Of a DNA stretch of 64,000 bases, positions 2,552-42,570 are shown one piece after another. Origin of the DNA: an uncultured Candidatus Actinomarina sp. (GTDB taxonomy: Bacteria > Actinomycetota > Acidimicrobiia > Actinomarinales > Actinomarinaceae); contig CACJJR010000003.1 of the NCBI GenBank assembly GCA_902593795.1, positions 89,837-153,836 of the forward strand. The letters run 5' to 3'. The translations under genes were made by a program, and so were the position numbers. Each line of letters starts with the position of its first letter. Within the stretch, counting starts at the first letter, position 1. The notes below the pieces were generated by a model. The model ran no database searches, was not told where the DNA came from, and saw nothing but the letters and a program-made list of their open reading frames with translations.

Positions 2552-4192
<1,641 letters not shown>

Positions 4193-4212
4193 GTAAATTA
4201 CATCTAAGAATT

Positions 4213-4244
4213 AAAAAAGAGTGGACATTGTTCCACTCTTTTTA
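4213..4244 (+). terminator. rho-independent terminator after groEL
   Basis: Stem AGAGTGGA / TCCACTCT (4218-4225 / 4232-4239) with a 6-nt loop, A-tract before and T-run after. Confidence 0.8.
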
Positions 4245-4261
4245 TATAGTAAACAAATATT

Positions 4262-4606
4262 ATGAAAAGTATTCGTGGAGCAATCGCAGTTGTAGAGAAC
4301 AATCAAGATAGTATTTTAGACTCATCTAAATTACTCCTTAGTGAGATTTTTGAACAAAATTCAATTACGGAAGACGATATAGAATCTGCTATTTTTACTG
4401 TTACTAAAGAGCTAACAAAAGCATTTCCAGCAAAAGCTTTTCGAGAGCTTGGAATGTTTTCTGTTGCTGCAATAGATACACTTGCACCTGATATAGATGG
4501 AGATCTTGAAGGTTGTATCCGTGTCTTAATTAATTTAAACAGTGATTCAGCAGAAGTTAATCATGTTTATTTAGGCGAAGCAAAAAATTTGAGACCCGAT
4601 AGATAA
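4262..4606 (+). CDS. aroH: chorismate mutase, AroH class
   Basis: 114 aa, collinear with the B. subtilis AroH-type chorismate mutase (N-terminal IRGA, FPAKAFREL, CIRVL, HVYLGEAKNLRPD). Confidence 0.85.
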   Translation: MKSIRGAIAVVENNQDSILDSSKLLLSEIFEQNSITEDDIESAIFTVTKELTKAFPAKAFRELGMFSVAAIDTLAPDIDGDLEGCIRVLINLNSDSAEVNHVYLGEAKNLRPDR

Positions 4607-4648
4607 AAATTATTTGCAAAACTAAATTCTGTGCTACCATGTTCTTTA

Positions 4649-4747
4649 ATGAAATTAAATAACACATACTTTTACTTTAGTGAGCACATATAAGTTGCCC
4701 TAAAGTGTGTATTGTGAAATCGGGCAAAAGCCCGATTTTTTTATTTT
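4649..4747 (+). promoter_or_regulatory. candidate transcription attenuator: leader peptide MKLNNTYFYFSEHI (4649-4693) plus alternative hairpins and terminator
   Basis: The mini-ORF ATG AAA TTA AAT AAC ACA TAC TTT TAC TTT AGT GAG CAC ATA TAA carries tandem Tyr/Phe codons. Region 1 ACTTTAG (4674-4680) pairs with CTAAAGT (4700-4706). TTGCCC (4695-4700) pairs with GGGCAA (4722-4727), which overlaps the 5-prime arm of the terminator. Confidence 0.55.
4717..4747 (+). terminator. rho-independent terminator (attenuator terminator and/or aroH terminator)
   Basis: Stem AAATCGGGC / GCCCGATTT with an AAAA loop (4717-4738), followed by TTTTTTTATTTT. It lies immediately before the GAGGAGG SD of the DAHP synthase gene. 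Confidence 0.85.
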
Positions 4748-4758
4748 GAGGAGGAAAA

Positions 4759-5772
4759 TTGATAATAGTAATGAAAGAGTCTCATACTGAAGAAGATATT
4801 GAGAAGGTAAAAGAAAAGGCAATACAGCAGGGACATGAACCACTAGTCATATTTGGCGTGGAACGAAGCGTTGTAGCAGTGAGTGGTAAAGTAAATGATG
4901 ACCATCGTGCTGTGATGAAACTTTTACCAAATGTAAGTCGAGTAATTCCAGTTGGAAAACCGTACAAACTTGCAAGCAAAAACTACAAAAAAGAAAATTC
5001 AGTCATTCAAATACAAAACCTTAAGATTGGTGGTGATGAAATTGCAATTATTGCTGGTCCAGATAGTGCTGAAACACAAGAACAGACAATCGAAACTGCA
5101 ATGGCTGCAAAGGAAGCAGGATCAAATGGTTTGAGAGGCGGCGCATTTAAACCAAGAACCTCACCATACAGTTTCCAGGGATTGGGCGAAGATGGATTAA
5201 AAATGCTGAAAGAGGCCTCTGAAATTACTTCATTACCGCTATTTAGTGAAATTATGGATGCTCAACATTTATCAATGATGGAAAAATATGTTGATGTTTT
5301 ACAAGTTGGTGCAAGAAACATGCAGAATTTTAAACTCCTCGAAGCTGTTGGTGAATCAAAGTTACCGGTTTTGTTAAAACGAGGATTGTCTGCAACCTTG
5401 GACGAGCTACTACTTGCAAGTGAATACATCCTATCAAGAGGCAATGAAAATGTCATGTTGTGTGAAAGAGGTATTAGAACCTATGAGACCGCCACAAGGA
5501 ATACATTTGATATAAATGCTATTCCTTTTTTGAAGCAGAACAGTCATTTGCCTGTAATAGCTGATCCTAGTCATGCAACTGGTGACAATACTTTAGTTGA
5601 GCCAGTTGCTTTAGCAGCTATAGCTGCTGGTGCTGATGGATTATTAATTGAAATCCACCCTAGGCCGGAGGAAGCTTTATGTGATGGGCCACAAGCATTA
5701 CTTCCAAGCGAACTAGAGGTTTTAATAAATAAAGCATCAATTGTTGCAAAGGCGGTTGGAAGGTCACTTTAA
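4759..5772 (+). CDS. aroF: 3-deoxy-7-phosphoheptulonate (DAHP) synthase, type I-beta with N-terminal ferredoxin-like regulatory domain
   Basis: 337 aa. The N-terminus MIIVMKESHTEEDIEKV resembles the Thermotoga-type DAHPS regulatory domain, and the KDO8P/DAHPS barrel motifs are present (RGGAFKPRTSPYSFQG, VGARNMQN, ADPSHATG). TTG start is 4 nt after GAGGAGG. Confidence 0.88.
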   Translation: MIIVMKESHTEEDIEKVKEKAIQQGHEPLVIFGVERSVVAVSGKVNDDHRAVMKLLPNVSRVIPVGKPYKLASKNYKKENSVIQIQNLKIGGDEIAIIAGPDSAETQEQTIETAMAAKEAGSNGLRGGAFKPRTSPYSFQGLGEDGLKMLKEASEITSLPLFSEIMDAQHLSMMEKYVDVLQVGARNMQNFKLLEAVGESKLPVLLKRGLSATLDELLLASEYILSRGNENVMLCERGIRTYETATRNTFDINAIPFLKQNSHLPVIADPSHATGDNTLVEPVALAAIAAGADGLLIEIHPRPEEALCDGPQALLPSELEVLINKASIVAKAVGRSL

Positions 5773-6608
5773 TGTTAAAAACAATTCATATTATTGGTCT
5801 TGGTTTAATGGGAACAAATTTGGGAATCAAATTAGTAAACAGTGGCTTTGAAGTAAGTGGGTCTGATGTTTTAGAAGAAAATGTTAGGCGGGCAAAAGAG
5901 CTCTCGGCTATATCATTGGATCATGATGAGTCTATAGAGTATGATCTTATAGTTTTGGCTATTCCAATTAATGAAATTTTAAATTATTTTGATTCAGAAC
6001 CATCTTTGAAGTCAAGAGCAATTGTTGACTTAGGAGGTACAAAAGATCTTATCTGTAAAAAAATGGATACATCTACTATTCCTGCAATAGGAGGACATCC
6101 ACTATGCGGTATCGCAGACAATAGTACGTGGGAACCAACTCCTGAAATGTACGAAGGAGCTCCATTTTTACTATGTGAAACAAGATCAACTGATGAGCAA
6201 AGCAAGGCAGTAGTTACAGAATTTATAAAAGCTATTGAATCTAGTGAGATATGGATTGATCAATCAAAACACGATGAGTTAATTTCTTTGACAAGTCACT
6301 TGCCGCATATTCTAAGTTCTGCTTTAGTTTCACTTGCTATGAAAGAGCAAGATTTAAATGAATTGATAAATTTAGCCTCTGGAGGTTTTGATGGAGCTAC
6401 TCGTCTATCTAGGACTTCACCAAATATGATTTCTGATATGTATCTAACAAATGTTGACAATGTAAAAGATTTAATTAATAAATTAATATCGGAACTTCAA
6501 CAAATTCAAAAAATTAGTGACGAGAAAATTATGTTAGGTTATTTGTCAGATACCGTTGATTGGCGCAGGGCCTTGGCAGAAAAGTTTGGAGAAAGAGACC
6601 TCACATAA
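5772..6608 (+). CDS. tyrA: prephenate (or arogenate) dehydrogenase
   Basis: 278 aa with an N-terminal Rossmann motif (IGLGLMG) and the GGHPLCG and TSHLPHILS motifs. TAATG overlaps at both ends. Confidence 0.85.
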   Translation: MLKTIHIIGLGLMGTNLGIKLVNSGFEVSGSDVLEENVRRAKELSAISLDHDESIEYDLIVLAIPINEILNYFDSEPSLKSRAIVDLGGTKDLICKKMDTSTIPAIGGHPLCGIADNSTWEPTPEMYEGAPFLLCETRSTDEQSKAVVTEFIKAIESSEIWIDQSKHDELISLTSHLPHILSSALVSLAMKEQDLNELINLASGGFDGATRLSRTSPNMISDMYLTNVDNVKDLINKLISELQQIQKISDEKIMLGYLSDTVDWRRALAEKFGERDLT

Positions 6609-7876
6609 TGAAAATTGAAGGCACTTTAAGTATTGTTGGAGACAAGTCTCTTTCTCATAGAGCAGTAATTCTTTGTTCCTTAGCAAGTGGAGTTTCAAGA
6701 ATAAAAAATATTTTATTGTCGGGAGATACAAAAGCTACGATACAGATTTTCAGACAGTTAGGAGTAGAAATAAATGAAATCAACAATAATGAAGTAGAGA
6801 TTCACGGAGTAGGATTACATGGCTTGAGACAACCTGAAGGCCCACTTAATGCAGTAAATTCTGGTACCACTGCAAGACTACTTACAGGTCTTTTGTCAAA
6901 GCAAAATTTCAAGTCTGAATTAACCGGTAGTACTCAATTAATTAAACGCCCAATGAAAAGAATAGTAAAGCCACTTAGTGAAAAGGGAGCCGCTATTAAA
7001 GACACCAGGGGCAAATTACCAATTAATTTTGAACCAAAAGATTATAAATTTGAAAGTATCTATTCAGATAAACCAAGTGCACAAGTTAAAAGTGGATTTC
7101 TTCTTGCCTCACTTTATCATGATGAATTTCCGACAACTGTTATTGAAGAGCTACCGACAAGAGATCACACTGAACGAATGTTAAATTTAATGGGAGTAAA
7201 TACCGTTAGACTTGGCAACTCTATAACAATAGAACCTGTATCAAGTCTTAGAAGTATTAACTACACCGTGCCTGGAGACCCTTCCTCAGCGGCATTTTTG
7301 ATAGCTCTTGGTCTTATGAAAAGTAAAAAATTAATCATCAAAGATGTTTTGCTCAATGAAAGAAGAATTGGTTTTCTAAAAATATTAAAACGAATGAACG
7401 CAAAAATATCAATTGAAAATCTAGAAGTTAGAGATAACGAATCAGTAGGAGATATACATGTTTCAAAATCTAATTTATCTTCTGTTGAGATTAATAAGGA
7501 AGATGTGTCTGACATGGTAGATGAATTTCCAATATTTACTCTTTTGGCGACGCAAGCTAAGGGAGTTACCACTGTTATTGGAGCAGGTGAGCTAAGAATA
7601 AAAGAATCAGACCGCATAGAATCTATGGAAAACTTTATTCAATCACTGGGTGGAGATATAGAAGTTAATCCTGATGGTTTTAAAGTTAATGGCCTTCAAA
7701 AATTAAAATCTGGACAAATTAAAACTTTTGAGGACCACAGAATAGCCATGACTGGTGTAATTGCAAATCTAGCAATTAATAATGGTATTAAACCAGATAA
7801 CATAAATTGTATTTCAGATTCTTACCCCAGTTTTTTTTCAGATCTTGAAAAAATTGGAGCAAATTATGACAATTAG
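6608..7876 (+). CDS. aroA: 3-phosphoshikimate 1-carboxyvinyltransferase (EPSP synthase)
   Basis: Motifs GDKSLSHRA, NSGTTARLL, LRIKESDRI and EDHRIAM. ATG 6608 (MKIEGTL...) is preferred over the track start at 6560 and gives a TAATG junction with tyrA. Confidence 0.93.
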   Translation: MKIEGTLSIVGDKSLSHRAVILCSLASGVSRIKNILLSGDTKATIQIFRQLGVEINEINNNEVEIHGVGLHGLRQPEGPLNAVNSGTTARLLTGLLSKQNFKSELTGSTQLIKRPMKRIVKPLSEKGAAIKDTRGKLPINFEPKDYKFESIYSDKPSAQVKSGFLLASLYHDEFPTTVIEELPTRDHTERMLNLMGVNTVRLGNSITIEPVSSLRSINYTVPGDPSSAAFLIALGLMKSKKLIIKDVLLNERRIGFLKILKRMNAKISIENLEVRDNESVGDIHVSKSNLSSVEINKEDVSDMVDEFPIFTLLATQAKGVTTVIGAGELRIKESDRIESMENFIQSLGGDIEVNPDGFKVNGLQKLKSGQIKTFEDHRIAMTGVIANLAINNGIKPDNINCISDSYPSFFSDLEKIGANYDN

Positions 7877-8660
7877 ATTAGGGATAATAGGTTGGCCATT
7901 AACAAAGACATTTTCTCCAAACATACATCAAAGTCTTTCTGAAATTTCGAATATTGATATTGCTTATAAAAAATTACCAATTGAGAATTTTACTTTAGAC
8001 ATCTATGAAAGTTTGAATGATGAATTTGATGGATATAATGTAACGATTCCTCATAAAGAAAACATATATAATTTATCTAAAGATTTAAAGAATGTCTCGA
8101 GATCATCAGTTGTTGAAAATATTAAAGCTGTAAATACCGTAAAAGTAGATGGCAACAATGTTTTATTATCAAACACAGATGTCGATGGTATTAATCAAAC
8201 TTTTGAATTTATCAATTTTGATATTAATGACAAAATTGTACTTATTCTTGGTAGCGGAGGAAGTGCTCAAACTGCGAAGTATACGTTATCAGAAAATAAT
8301 AAGGTGTATACAGTTTCTAGAAATAAAAAAGATGGAGACTTCACTTATACAGAGGTTAATCAGATAGCTGGTGATGTTGAGGTCATTATAAATACTACGC
8401 CATTAGGAATGCCACCATATGAAAATGAAAAACTTCCTATAAGTCATCTTAATTTTTCAAAATTAGAATTGTTCTTCAACTTTGGATATGGTGTATCAAA
8501 GAAACTAACAAGTGAAATTCCTAAAAATGTGACATCAATTGATGGAACAATAATGTTAATTGCTCAAGCAATATCTTCGTTTAATATATGGACAGGACAA
8601 AGTATAAAATTTAACGAAGCTTACAAGGAAATTGTAGAAAGGATAGATTATGAGAATTGA
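7866..8660 (+). CDS. aroE: shikimate dehydrogenase
   Basis: Motifs YNVTIPHKE, SNTDVDG and LILGSGGSAQ. ATG 7866 has a GGAG 6 nt upstream, whereas the track start at 7845 is a TTG. Confidence 0.88.
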   Translation: MTIRLGIIGWPLTKTFSPNIHQSLSEISNIDIAYKKLPIENFTLDIYESLNDEFDGYNVTIPHKENIYNLSKDLKNVSRSSVVENIKAVNTVKVDGNNVLLSNTDVDGINQTFEFINFDINDKIVLILGSGGSAQTAKYTLSENNKVYTVSRNKKDGDFTYTEVNQIAGDVEVIINTTPLGMPPYENEKLPISHLNFSKLELFFNFGYGVSKKLTSEIPKNVTSIDGTIMLIAQAISSFNIWTGQSIKFNEAYKEIVERIDYEN

Positions 8661-9831
8661 ATATCTGACAGCTGGTGAAAGTCATGGACCAGAATTAACA
8701 GCAATTATAGAAGGTATCCCATCAAATTTTGAAGTAAGTAAAAATTACATTGATGAGTTTTTAGCAAGACGACAAAAATCTTTAGGTTCTGGCGGAAGAA
8801 TGAATATTGAAAAAGATGAGATTTTTATTACTTCTGGAGTAATTAATAATTTATCAACGGGTGGTCCTATAGCAATAAAGATTATCAATAAAGACTGGAA
8901 AAATTGGAAGGATAAAGAAATAGAACCTTTCGTAGTTCCTCGTCCAGGACATGCAGACTTGGTCGGGACATTTAAGTATAAACATGATGACATAAGGCTT
9001 TCACTTGAAAGAGCAAGTGCACGAGAAACTGCAATTAGATGCGCAATAGGAGCTATCTGTCATCAAATCCTAAGTCAACTTGGAGTTGAAGTTGTAGGTT
9101 ATGTTTCATCTATTGGTCAGCAAAAGCTAGAAAATATTGATTTAGAAGAAATAGGTCTAATTAAAAAACTTGTTGATGAATCTGAAGTGTCATGTCCGGA
9201 TAAAGAAGTAAGTGAGTTAATGATAAATGAAATATTAACGGCAAGAAAGAAAAAGGACACTTTAGGTGGCTCTATAACATTAGTTGCAAAAAATTTTCCT
9301 GCAGGCTGCGGTAGCTATGTTCATTTTGATAGAAAGCTAGACGCAAAACTTACTTCATCTATGATGTCTGTGCAGAGCGTTAAGGCAGTTGAGGTTGGCA
9401 GTGGTATAGAAGCATCTAAAGATTTTGGCACAGCCGTACAAGATCAAATAGTTTTAAATGAACAAAATATTGAACGAATCACAAATAATTTAGGTGGATT
9501 TGAGGGAGGTATGTCAACAGGGGAGCCAATTATGATAACTTCTTATTTAAAACCAATAAGTACAACTTTGACTCCTATAAAAAGTGTTGACTTGGCATCA
9601 CAGAAAGAAACGGAAACTAACTATGAAAGGTCTGACACCTGTGCAGTGCCTAGAGCTGTTCCTATTTTTGAAAGTGTAATATCTATAGACCTTTTAAATT
9701 CCCTGATTGAAAATACAGGAGGAGATAATAAAGAACTAATTTTAAAAAGAGTTAATGAAATAAAAGATATAACTCTTGATAGCTTTAATTTGGCAAATAA
9801 AACTTGGTCTATGAAATATGAAAATGAATAA
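8650..9831 (+). CDS. aroC: chorismate synthase
   Basis: 393 aa with YLTAGESHGPEL, RPGHADL and RSDTCAVPRA motifs. Confidence 0.95.
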   Translation: MRIEYLTAGESHGPELTAIIEGIPSNFEVSKNYIDEFLARRQKSLGSGGRMNIEKDEIFITSGVINNLSTGGPIAIKIINKDWKNWKDKEIEPFVVPRPGHADLVGTFKYKHDDIRLSLERASARETAIRCAIGAICHQILSQLGVEVVGYVSSIGQQKLENIDLEEIGLIKKLVDESEVSCPDKEVSELMINEILTARKKKDTLGGSITLVAKNFPAGCGSYVHFDRKLDAKLTSSMMSVQSVKAVEVGSGIEASKDFGTAVQDQIVLNEQNIERITNNLGGFEGGMSTGEPIMITSYLKPISTTLTPIKSVDLASQKETETNYERSDTCAVPRAVPIFESVISIDLLNSLIENTGGDNKELILKRVNEIKDITLDSFNLANKTWSMKYENE

Positions 9832-10318
9832 TTCATTTTATTTATGTGGGTTTATGGGTGTTGGTAAAACTACGATTTTAAATAATATTAAACAACAAAC
9901 TAAATATACGTGTATTGATTTGGATGAAAATATAGAGAATAAGTATGGTCAGATAGATAATATTTTTGTAGAAAAAGGAGAGATTTTTTTTAGAGAAATT
10001 GAAGAAAAAGAATTTTTTGTAAATCAAAACAAATTTAATTTAATTTCTTTAGGCGGTGGCGCAATAGAAAATGACAATATTTTTGAAAATTTACTTAAAA
10101 GTAATCAAACTATTTATTTAAGTCTTAACTTTGAAATTCTTTGGGAAAGAATTAAAAATTCAAACAGACCACTAGTTAGTACAGGAAGAGAAATTCTTGA
10201 AAGTAGATACAAAAATAGAATAAAAAGGTACGAGATGATGGAATATAAAATTTCCAATGAGAATTTAAAAGATACTACAAGCAAAGTACTAGAAATAATG
10301 GAAAATCAAAATGCCTAA
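9818..10318 (+). CDS. aroK: shikimate kinase
   Basis: 166 aa with Walker A GFMGVGKTT and an SLGGGA motif. It sits between aroC and aroB as in other actinobacteria. Confidence 0.88.
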   Translation: MKMNNSFYLCGFMGVGKTTILNNIKQQTKYTCIDLDENIENKYGQIDNIFVEKGEIFFREIEEKEFFVNQNKFNLISLGGGAIENDNIFENLLKSNQTIYLSLNFEILWERIKNSNRPLVSTGREILESRYKNRIKRYEMMEYKISNENLKDTTSKVLEIMENQNA

Positions 10319-11303
10319 AAATATTTATCTAAGCAGCAGTGAAGAATTAATTAAATATATTAATGAAGATTTACCAAATGAGAGCTTAATTATTCTCGAT
10401 TCTGCTCTTGAGCAATTTAAATTACATAGCAATTTTAATGCAAGTCATGTTTACTTAAAGGTTTCTGAAGAAACAAAAAATTTAGAAACAGTTGAAAAAA
10501 TTTGGGAAATAATGTTTTCATCAAATTTAAATAGATCAGACGCAATAGTAATTATTGGAGGTGGGGTTATGCTTGACCTCTGCTCTTTTGCTGCAAGCAC
10601 ATATAAAAGGGGTATTGCCTTTACATTAGTTCCGTCTACTTTATTAGCTATGGTTGATGCATCTCATGGAGGTAAAAATGGTTTTAATAATAATTATGGA
10701 AAAAACCAAATTGGCACTTTTAATTTACCCAAGGGTGTTGTAGTTTGTTTTGAACTTCTCAATACTTTGAAAGATAAAGATTATAAAGATGGCTTAATTG
10801 AGCTTGTAAAACATGGACTAATTGGTAGTAAAGAAATATTTGATAAATTGGTTTTTACAGAAAATTTCAAAATAGATACTGAGATAATCAAAAAAGGAAT
10901 ACAAATTAAAGAAGATATTGTAGAAGACGATTATTTAGAAACTGGAAAAAGAAAATATTTAAATTTTGGGCATACAGTAGGCCACTTAATTGAGCAAGAT
11001 TCAAAGTTCACTTTATCACACGGTGAAGCTGTAGCTATAGGAATGATTTATGAACTTGAACTATCGAAGAAACATTTTGGTTTGCCACAAGAAGTAATTG
11101 ATTTGTATGTTTCATATCTTGAAAAACTTGATTACAAAAAATCATATGAATTTGTAAACGACATCGACTACTTATTAGGAATTTTAAAAGATGATAAAAA
11201 AAGTAAATCTGACTCTGTAGATATTGTTTTACTATCAGATATATCACAGCCTAATTTAATTAGTATAAGCTTTGATGAATTGATTGAGGTGATTCAAAAT
11301 TAA
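10311..11303 (+). CDS. aroB: 3-dehydroquinate synthase
   Basis: 330 aa with IGGGVMLDLCSFAAS, LNFGHTVGHLIE and HGEAVAIGM metal-site motifs. Confidence 0.92.
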   Translation: MPKNIYLSSSEELIKYINEDLPNESLIILDSALEQFKLHSNFNASHVYLKVSEETKNLETVEKIWEIMFSSNLNRSDAIVIIGGGVMLDLCSFAASTYKRGIAFTLVPSTLLAMVDASHGGKNGFNNNYGKNQIGTFNLPKGVVVCFELLNTLKDKDYKDGLIELVKHGLIGSKEIFDKLVFTENFKIDTEIIKKGIQIKEDIVEDDYLETGKRKYLNFGHTVGHLIEQDSKFTLSHGEAVAIGMIYELELSKKHFGLPQEVIDLYVSYLEKLDYKKSYEFVNDIDYLLGILKDDKKSKSDSVDIVLLSDISQPNLISISFDELIEVIQN

Positions 11304-11736
11304 AGATATATACATTATCAACGGTCCAAATCTTAATTTTTTAGGCATAAGAGAAATTACCCAATATGGATCAACAAGCTATGATGAGTTAAAAAATTTA
11401 ATAAATTCTGAAGCAAAGAAGTTAAAAATCAAAACTGTTTTTTTTCAATCAAATATTGAAGGTGAAATTGTTGATTATATACAAAACCTAATTAATAATG
11501 AAAATTCATCGGTTGTGATCAATCCTGGAGCATACACACATACAAGTATTGCAATAAGGGACGCTTTGCAGACTTATTCACAAAACAACGATATAGTTGA
11601 AGTTCATATTTCAGATATAAATCAAAGAGAACAATTTAGAAAAACAAATTTAATTTCTGATATTAGTACTAAATCAATTATTGGAAAAGGTGTGCAGGGA
11701 TACATTGAAGCACTGGAGTACATTAATGAACAATAA
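11299..11736 (+). CDS. aroQ: 3-dehydroquinate dehydratase, type II (apparent ATT start)
   Basis: The frame is open from 11293. It encodes (M)KDIYIINGPNLNFLGIREITQYG...QSNIEGEIVDYI...VINPGAYTHTSIAIRDAL...VEVHISDINQREQFR, a full-length type II DHQase of about 145 aa. There is no ATG/GTG/TTG before the conserved N-terminus. A GAGGTGA SD (11286-11292) lies 6 nt before ATT 11299. The track ORF at 11515 is only the C-terminal half. Confidence 0.85.
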   Translation: MKDIYIINGPNLNFLGIREITQYGSTSYDELKNLINSEAKKLKIKTVFFQSNIEGEIVDYIQNLINNENSSVVINPGAYTHTSIAIRDALQTYSQNNDIVEVHISDINQREQFRKTNLISDISTKSIIGKGVQGYIEALEYINEQ

Positions 11737-12547
11737 ACAAACAATTGCTTATCAAGGTTCGTCTGGCTCATATTCAGAGGAACTTTTAAAAAAGGAATAC
11801 TCGGATTATCTGTATCATCCGACTGAGACATTTACTGAGTTAATATCTTATGTAAAATCTGATTCTGGCATTGGATTGCTGCCTGTTGAAAATTCAATCG
11901 CAGGTACTGTGAATGAAGCATATGAAGAACTTATAGACAGTGGTCTGAAAATATTTGCAGAATATGTGCATAGAATTAATCACAGTTTAATAGGCCTAGT
12001 AGGTTCAGATATAGCAAATATTACAAATGTTATTTCCCACCCACAGGCATTACAGCAATGCAGCAAGTTTATACAGAAGCATAAATTTAGAATTACTCCA
12101 GTCTTTGATACTGCGGGAAGTGTATTTGAAATTTTAGAAGAAAATGAATTAACTACTGCTGCAATTGCTGGAGAACATTTTGAAAGCGATGAAAGATTCT
12201 TGATTTTAGAAAAAAATATATCAAATCATGAAGAAAACTATACAAGATTCCTTCTTATTGGAAATATAGATTTTGATCAGAAACAAGTTAAAAATAAGGT
12301 TTCATCAGTGCTCATATCTGATGATAAGCCAGGTTCGCTATTACAGTCTTTGAATATTTTTAGTGATTTGGATATTAACCTTACAAAACTTGAATCGCGA
12401 CCAATACTGGGAAGACCCTGGGAGTATAAATTTTATATTGATTATGAATTAGAAAACTTGGAAAAACAATCTGAGCTTGAGGAAAAAATAAGCAAAGTTT
12501 CTAAAGAATTTAAGTTATTAGGACATTATCCAAAAGCTATTCAGTAA
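11726..12547 (+). CDS. pheA: prephenate dehydratase (PDT + ACT domains)
   Basis: Motifs IAYQGSSGSYSE and NYTRFLLIG, with an ACT domain (DKPGSLLQSLNIFSDLDINLTKLESRP). ATG 11726 is preferred over the track start at 11681. Confidence 0.9.
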   Translation: MNNKQTIAYQGSSGSYSEELLKKEYSDYLYHPTETFTELISYVKSDSGIGLLPVENSIAGTVNEAYEELIDSGLKIFAEYVHRINHSLIGLVGSDIANITNVISHPQALQQCSKFIQKHKFRITPVFDTAGSVFEILEENELTTAAIAGEHFESDERFLILEKNISNHEENYTRFLLIGNIDFDQKQVKNKVSSVLISDDKPGSLLQSLNIFSDLDINLTKLESRPILGRPWEYKFYIDYELENLEKQSELEEKISKVSKEFKLLGHYPKAIQ

Positions 12548-28495: not shown

Positions 28496-28768
28496 ATGAA
28501 TAAAGATCAATTAGCAAGTGTTGTAGCAGCAGAAGTTGGATTGTCACAATCTGATGCTAAAAAAGCTGTAGAAGCCGTGTTCGATGGCGTAACAAATGGT
28601 ATGAAAAACGGCGATAAAGTAAGTATTGCTGGTTTTGGTAACTTTGAGTCAAGATACAGGGCTGCAAGACAAGGCAGGAACCCAGCAACAGGAGAAACAA
28701 TCCAAATTGCTGCAAAGAATGCCCCAGCTTTTAAAGCTGCAAAAGGATTAAAAGACGCTTTAAACTAA
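28496..28768 (+). CDS. hup: nucleoid-associated DNA-binding protein HU
   Basis: 90 aa with the canonical GFGNFESRYRAARQGRNPATGETIQI arm. Confidence 0.95.
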   Translation: MNKDQLASVVAAEVGLSQSDAKKAVEAVFDGVTNGMKNGDKVSIAGFGNFESRYRAARQGRNPATGETIQIAAKNAPAFKAAKGLKDALN

Positions 28769-28787
28769 AAGCATTTTTTATCAAATG

Positions 28788-28818
28788 AAAAGACGGCGAA
28801 AGTCGTCTTTTCTTTTTT
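28788..28818. terminator. bidirectional rho-independent terminator
   Basis: Stem AAAAGACG / CGTCTTTT with a GC-containing loop. A T-run follows on the + strand and an A-run on the - strand. It lies between convergent hup and the sdh-operon tail. Confidence 0.75.
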
Positions 28819-41121: not shown

Positions 41122-42519
41122 ATGAAATCGTTGCGTAAGCAAGGAATGATTATATTCATAGCATTCGCTCTTGTTTTAAGTGCTTGTGGTGGTGACGCTG
41201 CTGAAGAAGAGGTTGTTGTAGAAACAACTCCTGAAGTTGTAGAAACTTTAGACTCTCCTGCAGTCACAACCGCACAAACTGTTAAAACAGGTGTCGGTGT
41301 TACAGAGGAAGCTTGTCCAGCTGCATATGCAGCACTTGGGACACAGGTTCCTACAATGGCTGACCCAGATAAAGGATGTATTTATTTAGGTTTACTAAAT
41401 GACTACACAGGTCCTTTCGCAGCCGCGGGTCCTGCACTAGAAGGGGCTCAAAGAGCATTCTGGTTGTGGGTTAACTCAACTGGTGGAATTGGAGACTACA
41501 GCGTAGCTATTGTTGATGGCTACGATACCCAATACAATCCAGCAAAAATGATTGAAGGTTTTGCATTACAAAAAGATGATGTAGCAGCTTTTGCTATGAC
41601 ACTTGGTAGTGTACAAACACAATTTATTCTTGAGGCAATGGATGAAAGTGATACAATATCAGCTCCTATGAGCTGGTGGTCAGGTTGGTCATATAAATCA
41701 GCTGACAAAGGTCTAGCAATTGAGTTTGGATCTTCATATTGTGCACAGGGTATGAACATTGTTGATTGGGGAGTAGAAAACTTGCCAGTACCAATTAAAA
41801 AAATAGGTCTTATAGCTTATGTAAATCCTGGATATGCAGATGATTATTTTGCCGGTGTTAAAGCAGCAGCAACAGTAAATGGAATTGAGATAGTCTGGGA
41901 GTATGTACCCCCAGTTACTGAATTCGATGTTGCAGCAGCAGTTGGCTTAATGGCTACACAACCAGTTGATGCAGTCTATATGGCGACAGATCCGACAAGA
42001 ACAAGCCAAATATCTGGTGGAGCAGCACAGTTAGGAGTAGTACCTCTTACATTTATGGCAGCACCAGCATTTAATGAGGCTTTTGTTGCGGATGGTTCAC
42101 CTATTCAAGCATTGTTTACTTCAGGTGCTTTTTATACAGCAGCTTGGATTGATCCATATGAAGCAAACACACCAGGTCATGCAGCTATGCGTGCAACTTG
42201 GTCAGGAGCAATGGGGCAAACCTCAGCTAGCTCCTACGTAGTTGCTGGATGGTCTTCACAGTATCACCTAAAAGGTGTTCTTGAAGCAGCAGTCAAAGGT
42301 GGAGATCTAACTAAAGCAGGTATCAGAAGGGCAGCAGAAAATGTAAATGTTGATTCTGATGGTATGATGCCAGTTAGAACATTAGGTGTAAGTAAAGCTG
42401 AAACTTCCACTTCAATTACAGCGCCGGACGCTAGCATAGCTAGTGGTACAAGATTAGTTAAAGCTAACTATTCTGGTCCTACCGCCGCATCTCACGATTG
42501 GTCAAAACCTTGCGCCTAA
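41122..42519 (+). CDS. ABC transporter substrate-binding lipoprotein (Leu/Ile/Val-binding-protein superfamily), ligand unknown
   Basis: 465 aa with lipobox LVLSACGG and an acidic linker. It is the last gene of the liv-type operon. Its codon and amino-acid composition is visibly richer in G+C and in Ala/Gly/Val than neighbouring genes. Confidence 0.75.
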   Translation: MKSLRKQGMIIFIAFALVLSACGGDAAEEEVVVETTPEVVETLDSPAVTTAQTVKTGVGVTEEACPAAYAALGTQVPTMADPDKGCIYLGLLNDYTGPFAAAGPALEGAQRAFWLWVNSTGGIGDYSVAIVDGYDTQYNPAKMIEGFALQKDDVAAFAMTLGSVQTQFILEAMDESDTISAPMSWWSGWSYKSADKGLAIEFGSSYCAQGMNIVDWGVENLPVPIKKIGLIAYVNPGYADDYFAGVKAAATVNGIEIVWEYVPPVTEFDVAAAVGLMATQPVDAVYMATDPTRTSQISGGAAQLGVVPLTFMAAPAFNEAFVADGSPIQALFTSGAFYTAAWIDPYEANTPGHAAMRATWSGAMGQTSASSYVVAGWSSQYHLKGVLEAAVKGGDLTKAGIRRAAENVNVDSDGMMPVRTLGVSKAETSTSITAPDASIASGTRLVKANYSGPTAASHDWSKPCA

Positions 42520-42535
42520 CGTGAATTAATAATTT

Positions 42536-42570
42536 AAAAAGAGCCAGGTCTAACCTGGCTCTTTTTTTTA
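42536..42570 (+). terminator. rho-independent terminator after the ABC operon
   Basis: Stem GAGCCAGG / CCTGGCTC (42541-42548 / 42554-42561) with a 5-nt loop, flanked by AAAAA and TTTTTTTT. Confidence 0.85.

Follow-up and report, generated by a model that had tools for sequence, protein, structure and literature searches.

The window analysed here is a 64,000-nt stretch of contig CACJJR010000003.1 (assembly GCA_902593795.1) from an uncultured Candidatus Actinomarina sp., a marine actinobacterium with a low-GC genome (33% G+C). The genus is assigned to Actinomycetota in NCBI taxonomy. We focus on the 152-nt spacer that separates aroH from the gene for 3-deoxy-D-arabino-heptulosonate 7-phosphate (DAHP) synthase. 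The genome is very compact, intergenic gaps in the window are mostly shorter than 100 nt, and this spacer is among the larger ones. The initial annotation had proposed that it carries a Tyr/Phe leader peptide and a transcription attenuator. Nine genes follow the spacer, and they abut or overlap throughout. According to NCBIfam assignments, they encode the complete common aromatic pathway together with the Tyr branch (tyrA) and the Phe branch (pheA). Thus, the proposed target, an operon of DAHP synthase, TyrA, the shikimate enzymes and PheA, is borne out and is even fuller than described. The features of the locus, with the roles argued for below, are as follows.

2564-4192, groEL (NCBIfam assignment)
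4262-4606, + strand, aroH, monofunctional chorismate mutase (TIGR01796, 3.5e-30), 5' of the putative attenuator and not part of the controlled unit
4613-4640, + strand, predicted leader promoter: -35 TTTGCA at 4613-4618, 16-nt spacer, extended -10 TGc-TACCAT at 4632-4640
4649-4693, + strand, leader open reading frame (ORF) MKLNNTYFYFSEHI, 14 codons, ATG at 4649, TAA stop at 4691-4693
4667-4678, + strand, candidate regulatory codons TAC TTT TAC TTT (Tyr-Phe-Tyr-Phe), codons 7-10 of the leader ORF
4663-4716, + strand, predicted anti-antiterminator (1:2) hairpin with three stems, found in the minimum free energy (MFE) fold, the centroid and the RNAalifold consensus
4663-4669 with 4709-4716, + strand, lower stem of the 1:2 hairpin
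4673-4680 with 4700-4707, + strand, middle stem of the 1:2 hairpin
G4682 and G4684-C4687 with G4694 and U4696-C4699, + strand, upper stem of the 1:2 hairpin, GAGCAC:GUUGCC
4688-4693, + strand, apical loop AUAUAA of the 1:2 hairpin, comprising the Ile codon and the stop codon
4695-4700, + strand, predicted antiterminator 5' arm UUGCCC (U4696-C4699 in the upper stem, C4700 in the middle stem, U4695 bulged)
4722-4727, + strand, predicted antiterminator 3' arm GGGCAA, part of the terminator 5' arm and loop
4717-4738, with T7-A-T4 to 4747, + strand, intrinsic terminator AAATCGGGC-AAAA-GCCCGATTT (terminator scan)
4717-4747, + strand, the same terminator as RNA, AAAUCGGGC-AAAA-GCCCGAUUU followed by U7-A-U4
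4750-4754, + strand, Shine-Dalgarno (SD) sequence GGAGG; DAHP synthase start codon TTG at 4759-4761
4759-5772, + strand, DAHP synthase gene (NCBIfam), with which the operon begins
4759-12547, + strand, operon predicted to be controlled: DAHP synthase, tyrA, aroA, aroE, aroC, aroK, aroB, aroQ and pheA (NCBIfam)

Related loci were collected in two ways. Scanning GTDB species representatives with the DAHP synthase protein yielded 42 marine loci (L001-L042), labelled Ca. Actinomarina, Actinomarinales, OCS155 or Acidimicrobiia. Their identity is 76-100% over the matched segment, and the full-length protein was matched in 38 of the 42. The next matches, at no more than 55% identity, belong to other phyla. 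A metagenome scan, which used the terminator 24-mer as the query, returned 101 stretches; among their 77 distinct sequences about 10 are unrelated terminators elsewhere, and the rest represent the same locus. The exact 24-mer AATCGGGCAAANGCCCGATTTTTT occurs in about 10 unrelated metagenome contigs with entirely different flanks (L082, L085, L102, L110, L141, L147, L153, L159, L169 and L176), and is a generic, convergent terminator sequence. A megablast search of the plasmid collection with region 4200-5800 gave no match.

The 14-codon ORF lies between aroH and the DAHP synthase gene precisely where it had been annotated, with its four consecutive aromatic codons. Its conservation was assessed in 77 distinct sequences, from genomes with 76-97% DAHP synthase identity. 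The ATG is unchanged in all of them, and the stop codon is either TAA (50 sequences) or TAG (27 sequences) and never anything else. The encoded peptide occurs in 28 variants. Residues 2-6 and 11 vary freely, and one clade has a 13-codon ORF, MKINTYFYFRAHI, resulting from a 3-nt in-frame deletion. Codons 7-10 are aromatic in all 77 sequences: codon 7 is TAC in 53, TAT in 5 and TTT in 19; codon 9 is TAC in 76 and TAT in one; codons 8 and 10 are invariably TTT. The tandem aromatic codons are therefore retained in every aligned relative. Within the 1:2 hairpin, codons 7 and 8 are unpaired and belong to an internal loop, so RNA pairing does not account for their aromatic constancy. From this pattern and from the promoter placement described below, we infer that the mini-ORF behaves as a translated leader. 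Another mini-ORF, starting at ATG 4639 (MFFNEIK), was rejected, as it overlaps the -10 box and is missing from the relatives.

A peculiar variant of the leader is present in a single metagenome contig (L127, contig LUMQ01001684.1, minus strand, ~431-590), where an assembly artefact is possible. Here, 64 nt are deleted, so that aroH loses its stop codon and the leader loses both its promoter and its ATG; aroH is thereby joined in frame to ...NTYFYFREHI*. Because of this in-frame fusion, a ribosome translating aroH would pass through the aromatic codons and end at the leader stop.

No obvious SD sequence precedes the leader ATG, which had been considered the weak point of the attenuator proposal. 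The observation itself holds, since an SD-like 4-mer was not found upstream of the ATG in 58 of 59 distinct upstream variants (it is present in one). It is not fatal to the proposal, as the same variants share a conserved extended -10 promoter that suggests a leaderless mRNA. The -35 hexamer is TTTGCA, TTTGTA or TTGGCA, with TTTTCA and TTTTAA seen once each. In all 59 variants the spacer between -35 and -10 is exactly 16 nt long, although its sequence is highly variable, the TG at -15/-14 is unchanged, and the -10 element fits TAnnnT. The gap between the -10 element and the ATG is 6-8 nt, mostly 7 nt (8 nt in the window). Since the promoter ends only 6-8 nt before the ATG, transcription is expected to start at the ATG or within a couple of bases of it. 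The leader mRNA is thus probably leaderless or near-leaderless, its start being placed by the conserved promoter. Leaderless leader peptides have been mapped by RNA-seq in other actinobacteria, namely trpL1, leuL and ilvL of Streptomyces lividans (PMC8079986) and the ilvB leader of Corynebacterium diphtheriae (PMC5784534).

Similar arrangements can be seen by eye elsewhere in the window. Several first-in-operon gene starts (20994, 42600 and 46745) have TAnnnT 6-8 nt before the ATG and no SD, and strong SDs are present at other gene starts, including groES, 32493 and 41122. Leaderless mRNAs look common in this genome.

For region 4640-4750, the predicted folding energy is -28.9 kcal/mol, with a z-score of -4.6; among 200 dinucleotide shuffles, no fold was as stable. 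The predicted structure consists of the three-part 1:2 hairpin followed directly by the terminator, and this is the MFE architecture in all 35 genome variants. The helix described initially, ACTTTAG (4674-4680) with CTAAAGT (4700-4706), is located exactly as given. However, it constitutes only the middle part of the hairpin spanning 4663-4716. Likewise, the 1:2 and 2:3 pairings are mutually exclusive, as had been stated, but the exclusion arises from the upper stem, which holds TTGCCC, rather than from the shared C4700. In 54 variants, pairing in the middle and upper stems amounts to 97% (these pair counts exclude the covariance-model alignment A5, which was contaminated by weak reverse-strand terminator matches). 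Variation within the core falls on unpaired positions: the third base of codon 11, an A/C bulge, the A/G of the stop codon and a U/C bulge. The lower stem differs between clades in both sequence and register, yet pairing is kept, as exemplified by ACAACGUA/UACGUUGU, ACAAUAC/GUAUUGU and CACAUAC/GUGUAUUGUG. On its own the upper stem is worth only -1.0 kcal/mol and therefore would not resist displacement.

A few sequences depart from the middle stem. In L015 and L019 (~2945-2950; columns 101-102 of alignment A1) its 3' strand reads CTTTAG instead of CTAAAG. This double substitution breaks two pairs and shifts the predicted fold, and the aromatic codons show no compensating change. In L104 and L161 (column 32 of alignment A2) the same G-to-T change, which turns codon 11 from Ser/Arg into Ile, breaks the closing G-C pair of the middle stem. 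Its recurrence in two sequence backgrounds suggests that this closing pair is dispensable.

The two remaining helices were also found where they had been placed. TTGCCC (4695-4700) is complementary to GGGCAA (4722-4727), and the GCCC within it is unchanged in 54 of 54 variants. The terminator scan confirmed the 3:4 helix at 4717-4747. Its G+C-rich stem has 9-10 bp, the scan giving 10 bp with five G-C pairs, and a predicted energy of about -14.9 kcal/mol. In 35 genomes that were found through the protein and not through the terminator sequence, the terminator is unchanged except for one loop base. In the 60 kb scanned (1-60000), only about four intrinsic terminators are convincing, and it is one of them. 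The only other strong ones on the + strand are at 28787-28812, following an HU-like gene (28496-28768), and at 42536-42566, following a 465-aa ORF (41122-42519) without an NCBIfam match.

To relate these helices to ribosome position, we used constrained folds in which the ribosome was assumed to cover at most 15 nt on the 3' side of the first P-site base, a footprint size taken from general knowledge. In the window, placing the ribosome on any of the aromatic codons makes UUGCCC:GGGCAA the MFE pairing of the free RNA as long as the terminator 3' arm has not been transcribed. A ribosome at the stop codon covers UUGCCC, and the antiterminator cannot form. Among the 54 variants, the antiterminator forms in all 54 with the ribosome on the last aromatic codon, in 40 with the ribosome on the first and in none with the ribosome at the stop codon. 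The folds thus support both halves of the switch originally envisaged: a ribosome at the leader stop would cover TTGCCC and permit termination, and a stalled one would free TTGCCC to sequester the terminator 5' arm.

Transcription of the operon apparently has no way around this terminator. Only 2 nt separate the end of the T-run (4747) from GGAGG (4750). A promoter does not fit into this gap, and every operon transcript must therefore pass the terminator. This excludes the scenario in which the terminator serves aroH constitutively and the operon has a promoter of its own beyond it. The position of the DAHP synthase start is kept in relatives as TTG, GTG or ATG.

Selection on the element is evident from its conservation. 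In 11 divergent genomes, 61 of the 93 positions of the leader are invariant and the mean column identity is 91%. For the first 300 nt of the DAHP synthase gene in the same genomes, the identity is 81% and only 5 of 100 third-codon positions are invariant. The leader is therefore strongly constrained at the nucleotide level, which fits coding and structural roles that overlap. A covariance model built from the element (R1) finds exactly one copy per Actinomarina locus. It detected no further copy elsewhere in the window, and the eight distant DAHP synthase loci searched gave no match. In 36 distant loci, from Chloroflexota, Planctomycetota and others (49-55% identity), a separate search for aromatic mini-ORFs gave three sporadic matches without any pattern. 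In the window, only a tRNA matched Rfam at gathering thresholds, and relaxing the cutoff to E <= 10 in region 4400-4900 added only spurious sub-threshold small RNA matches. Those to AbsR28, MicC and SraG were rejected as terminator-driven and far below threshold. Judged by Rfam, the element is not a known riboswitch or T-box. It is a real and strongly conserved cis-regulatory element.

Taken together, the comparative and thermodynamic evidence all agrees, and we consider it likely that the element is a leaderless, leader-peptide (ribosome-mediated) Tyr/Phe transcription attenuator controlling the nine-gene aromatic operon. The attenuator interpretation of the initial annotation is thus supported in silico by conservation, folds, promoter and geometry. 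Such an attenuator would couple expression to the supply of charged tRNA-Tyr and tRNA-Phe. Transcription would start at the conserved extended -10 promoter, at or near the ATG, and the 14-codon ORF would be translated from the leaderless mRNA. With Tyr and Phe plentiful, the ribosome would reach the stop codon (4691-4693), which lies in the 1:2 hairpin's apical loop, and would there cover UUGCCC (4695-4700). After its release, the hairpin at 4663-4716 would re-form, and its upper stem, GAGCAC:GUUGCC, would hold UUGCCC. In either state the terminator (4717-4747) could form, stopping transcription about 12 nt before the DAHP synthase start. If Tyr or Phe were scarce, the ribosome would stall at codons 7-10 (4667-4678), occupying the 5' strands of the lower and middle stems. 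Only the weak upper stem would then be left, and UUGCCC could pair with GGGCAA once the latter is transcribed. This antiterminator would withhold the terminator 5' arm and let RNA polymerase enter the operon. Untranslated transcripts, including read-through from aroH, would terminate by default. In this scheme we infer the transcription start, translation of the ORF, the footprint size, the kinetic trapping discussed below and the response to amino acids.

The invariance of GAGCACAUAUA raises the question of an additional layer, either a pseudoknot that stabilises the antiterminator or an effect of the nascent peptide or the stop context; we regard such a layer as rather unlikely. In the pseudoknot version, AGCACA (4683-4688), once freed, would base-pair with the lower stem's GU-rich 3' strand, and the UUGCCC enclosed in this way would pair with GGGCAA; this would compensate for the very short antiterminator. 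Pairing of AGCACA with the GU-rich strand is possible in all variants (-4.3 to -6.9 kcal/mol), but a median of 12% of shuffles equal it. The combined arrangement is speculation, although it seems sterically plausible. In the other version, the release of the ribosome would be altered, tuning how long region 2 stays covered. An additional layer of this kind, if real, would make the element a compact attenuator variant fitted to an AT-rich, leaderless and streamlined genome.

A number of observations weigh against the attenuator interpretation. The antiterminator has 6 bp at best and only 4-5 bp in 15 of 54 variants; two of its U positions are changed to C, in 11 and 4 of the 54 variants, which breaks A-U pairs. 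Its four G-C pairs never vary and so are uninformative about covariation either way. More generally, in the MAFFT alignment covariation did not exceed shuffled controls for any of the helices. Together with the shortness of the antiterminator, this makes 'textbook geometry', as the arrangement had been called, an overstatement. Since MAFFT does not align the register-shifting lower stem structurally, we used an arm-swap energy test for this stem. Native pairings have -13.74 kcal/mol versus -13.17 +/- 0.18 kcal/mol for permuted ones, with 5 of 5000 permutations as good, but this co-adaptation is modest and the sequences compared are phylogenetically related. The antiterminator (-7.4 kcal/mol) is half as stable as the terminator, and an equally good one arises in 5.8% of composition-preserving shuffles. 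At half the stability it must act as a kinetic trap, as does the classical trp antiterminator.

The leader ORF has its own weak points. Codons 9-10 double as a stem strand, so that their constancy is confounded with structure, and the window's 8-nt gap from the -10 element to the ATG is on the long side if transcription is to start precisely at the A. Codons 12-14 and the loop (GAGCACAUAUA, that is, Glu-His-Ile-stop) are unchanged beyond the needs of the simple model, the invariance extending to synonymous sites and loop bases. The window contains four short ORFs starting with ATG that have at least four consecutive aromatic codons, versus 3.1 +/- 2.0 in shuffled sequences; at 33% G+C the aromatic run alone is therefore not remarkable. 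The other three such ORFs are inside or antisense to long ORFs, and the weight of the run is in its position and conservation. Although each single feature is weak, their conjunction is not due to chance.

Some of these observations would suit other explanations. It could be argued that the element senses nothing: the hairpin and terminator would serve to end aroH transcription, with read-through at a constant level, or to determine RNA stability or processing, and the conservation of an untranslated ORF would be a by-product of selection on RNA structure. Nucleotide conservation indeed exceeds coding needs, with the synonymous sites of codons 8, 10 and 12-14 invariant, the aromatic run is no rarer than chance, and the ORF lacks an SD. 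Moreover, neither inspection nor the terminator scan found a terminator between the aroH stop codon and the leader, so the terminator does serve aroH, and aroH transcripts would end at it. Yet a conserved dedicated promoter between the aroH stop codon and the hairpin would be pointless for mere aroH termination. An invariant ATG, a constant stop codon, an in-frame indel and aromatic-only changes in the unpaired codons 7-8 are not predicted for a purely structural element either, and the invariant GCCC, complementary to the terminator 5' arm, would have no role in a fixed terminator. A nine-gene operon with no promoter past the terminator also needs regulated or substantial read-through. We therefore consider a non-sensing element quite improbable. 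Alternatively, a trans-acting factor might bind the hairpin, such as an uncharged tRNA, a TRAP- or PyrR-like RNA-binding protein or a small molecule acting as in riboswitches, leaving the ORF incidental or auxiliary. The apical segment ACUUUAG-N-GAGCACAUAUA-R-G-Y-UGCCCUAAAG is almost invariant although synonymous sites of the genomes are saturated, and the AUAUAA loop and the bulges are constrained beyond pairing needs; besides, a weak antiterminator would gain from a stabilising factor. However, Rfam, with T-box and known aptamers included, gave no match even at E <= 10. The RNA from start to terminator is a simple hairpin of about 70 nt without aptamer-like junctions or conserved internal-loop motifs, and by inspection it has neither the T-box specifier/UGGN architecture nor repeated TRAP-type (G/U)AG triplets. 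Such a factor, which would also leave unexplained the conservation pattern of the ORF and the placement of the stop codon that toggles access to UUGCCC, appears improbable.

A third explanation would place the control at the level of translation, with re-initiation or coupling boosting DAHP synthase, or with sequestration of its SD, instead of termination. There are precedents for this, as C. glutamicum aroR is called a 'translational regulatory leader peptide' in one paper (PMC7356990) and another proposes re-initiation after leader peptides for Actinobacteria (PMC4833913). In our case, the leader stop precedes the DAHP synthase start by 65 nt, a strong intrinsic terminator lies between them, and the DAHP synthase gene has a strong GGAGG of its own. 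By eye, CCUAAA of region 2 is complementary to an SD-overlapping UUUAGG in many relatives. Nevertheless, this pairing is imperfect in the clade of the window, which has UUUUGAGG, and it would lower translation in starvation, which is the wrong regulatory sign; SD sequestration by CCUAAA:UUUAGG was rejected for both reasons. Overall, we judge translation-level action very improbable, and the Tyr/Phe transcription attenuator remains the favoured explanation.

Several observations concern the neighbouring genes. A 12-pair bidirectional terminator is located 3' of groEL (4214-4243). It is overlapped by a promoter-like TGGACA-17-TATAGT (4222-4250), whose distance to the aroH ATG is 11 nt. This ATG lacks an SD, and the aroH mRNA may have a very short leader or none. 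At the other end of the operon, a seeming 377-nt gap (11304-11680) was considered as the site of a second leader before pheA. This possibility was rejected, because the gap is accounted for by aroQ with a non-canonical start. The gene, coding for type II 3-dehydroquinate dehydratase, maps to 11299-11736 (2.8e-47, alignment from residue 2). It has no ATG, GTG or TTG start, and a TGA immediately precedes the opening of its frame, F-K-I-K-D-I-Y-I-I-N-G-P, which leaves only ATT (11299) or ATA (11308) as the start. The candidate start region overlaps the aroB stop at 11301-11303, which suggests a non-canonical start or translational coupling. Beside the larger intergenic gaps of the window, no other amino-acid operons with possible sister leaders were found.

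The closest functional analogue is aroR-aroF of C. glutamicum, to which the Actinomarina leader is likened by function and not by sequence. As summarised in PMC11802643 (citing Neshat et al. 2014) and PMC7356990, aroR is a leader peptide that contains Phe-Tyr-Phe and precedes aroF, which encodes DAHP synthase. Its read-through rises under Phe limitation via ribosome stalling, and Tyr supply is reportedly without effect (PMC11802643). Both leaders belong to actinobacteria, are short, mix Phe and Tyr and lie directly 5' of a DAHP synthase gene. They differ in taxonomic order (Actinomarinales versus Corynebacteriales) and, very strongly, in GC content. Furthermore, the Actinomarina run is Tyr/Phe-Phe-Tyr-Phe, and its unit is a nine-gene operon including tyrA and pheA. 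An independent origin of the two leaders seems likely.

In contrast to pheL, which is a Phe-only leader, the Actinomarina leader mixes Tyr and Phe and appears to control the common pathway. The proposed mechanism otherwise follows the four-region logic of E. coli pheL-pheA, pheM-pheST and trpL-trpEDCBA (PMC11802643 and general knowledge): the regulatory codons are in region 1, the stop codon is just before region 2, the antiterminator overlaps the terminator 5' arm, and an intrinsic terminator precedes the first structural gene. The enterobacterial leaders have an SD and a 5' untranslated region, whereas the Actinomarina leader apparently has neither, and its antiterminator (4-6 bp) is much shorter than theirs. 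No Rfam family, the leader families included, matches the Actinomarina element. In lacking an SD, in having the ORF at the predicted transcription start and in the hairpins, it resembles the leaders of S. lividans (trpL1, leuL and ilvL; PMC8079986) and C. diphtheriae (ilvB; PMC5784534), several of which are likewise followed by a U-rich intrinsic terminator. Those leaders sense Trp, Leu or Ile/Val and their starts were mapped by RNA-seq, whereas the Actinomarina start is deduced from the promoter.

A comparative survey of Actinobacteria from 2005 reported no RNA element upstream of Phe/Tyr genes (PMC1262725), and our literature search found no paper pairing 'Actinomarina' with 'attenuator'. 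Thus, the mechanism is classical and well known, but such an attenuator has not been described previously in the Actinomarina lineage. What makes it noteworthy is the lineage, the leaderless start and the compactness. For annotation purposes, the conserved element comes with a covariance model, R1. In metatranscriptomes, the ratio of coverage upstream and downstream of 4747 could serve as a read-out of Phe/Tyr limitation in situ.

Ca. Actinomarina is abundant and uncultured and has a very compact genome. If the attenuator interpretation is true, a 152-nt spacer puts its nine-gene aromatic pathway under a single, protein-free device that senses charged tRNA-Tyr and tRNA-Phe. This would illustrate how compact genomes of this kind keep regulation without transcription factors. 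Aromatic leader-peptide attenuation, known from C. glutamicum aroR, would then also occur in a distant lineage of actinobacteria, and leaderless leader peptides would gain a further example, from a low-GC genome.

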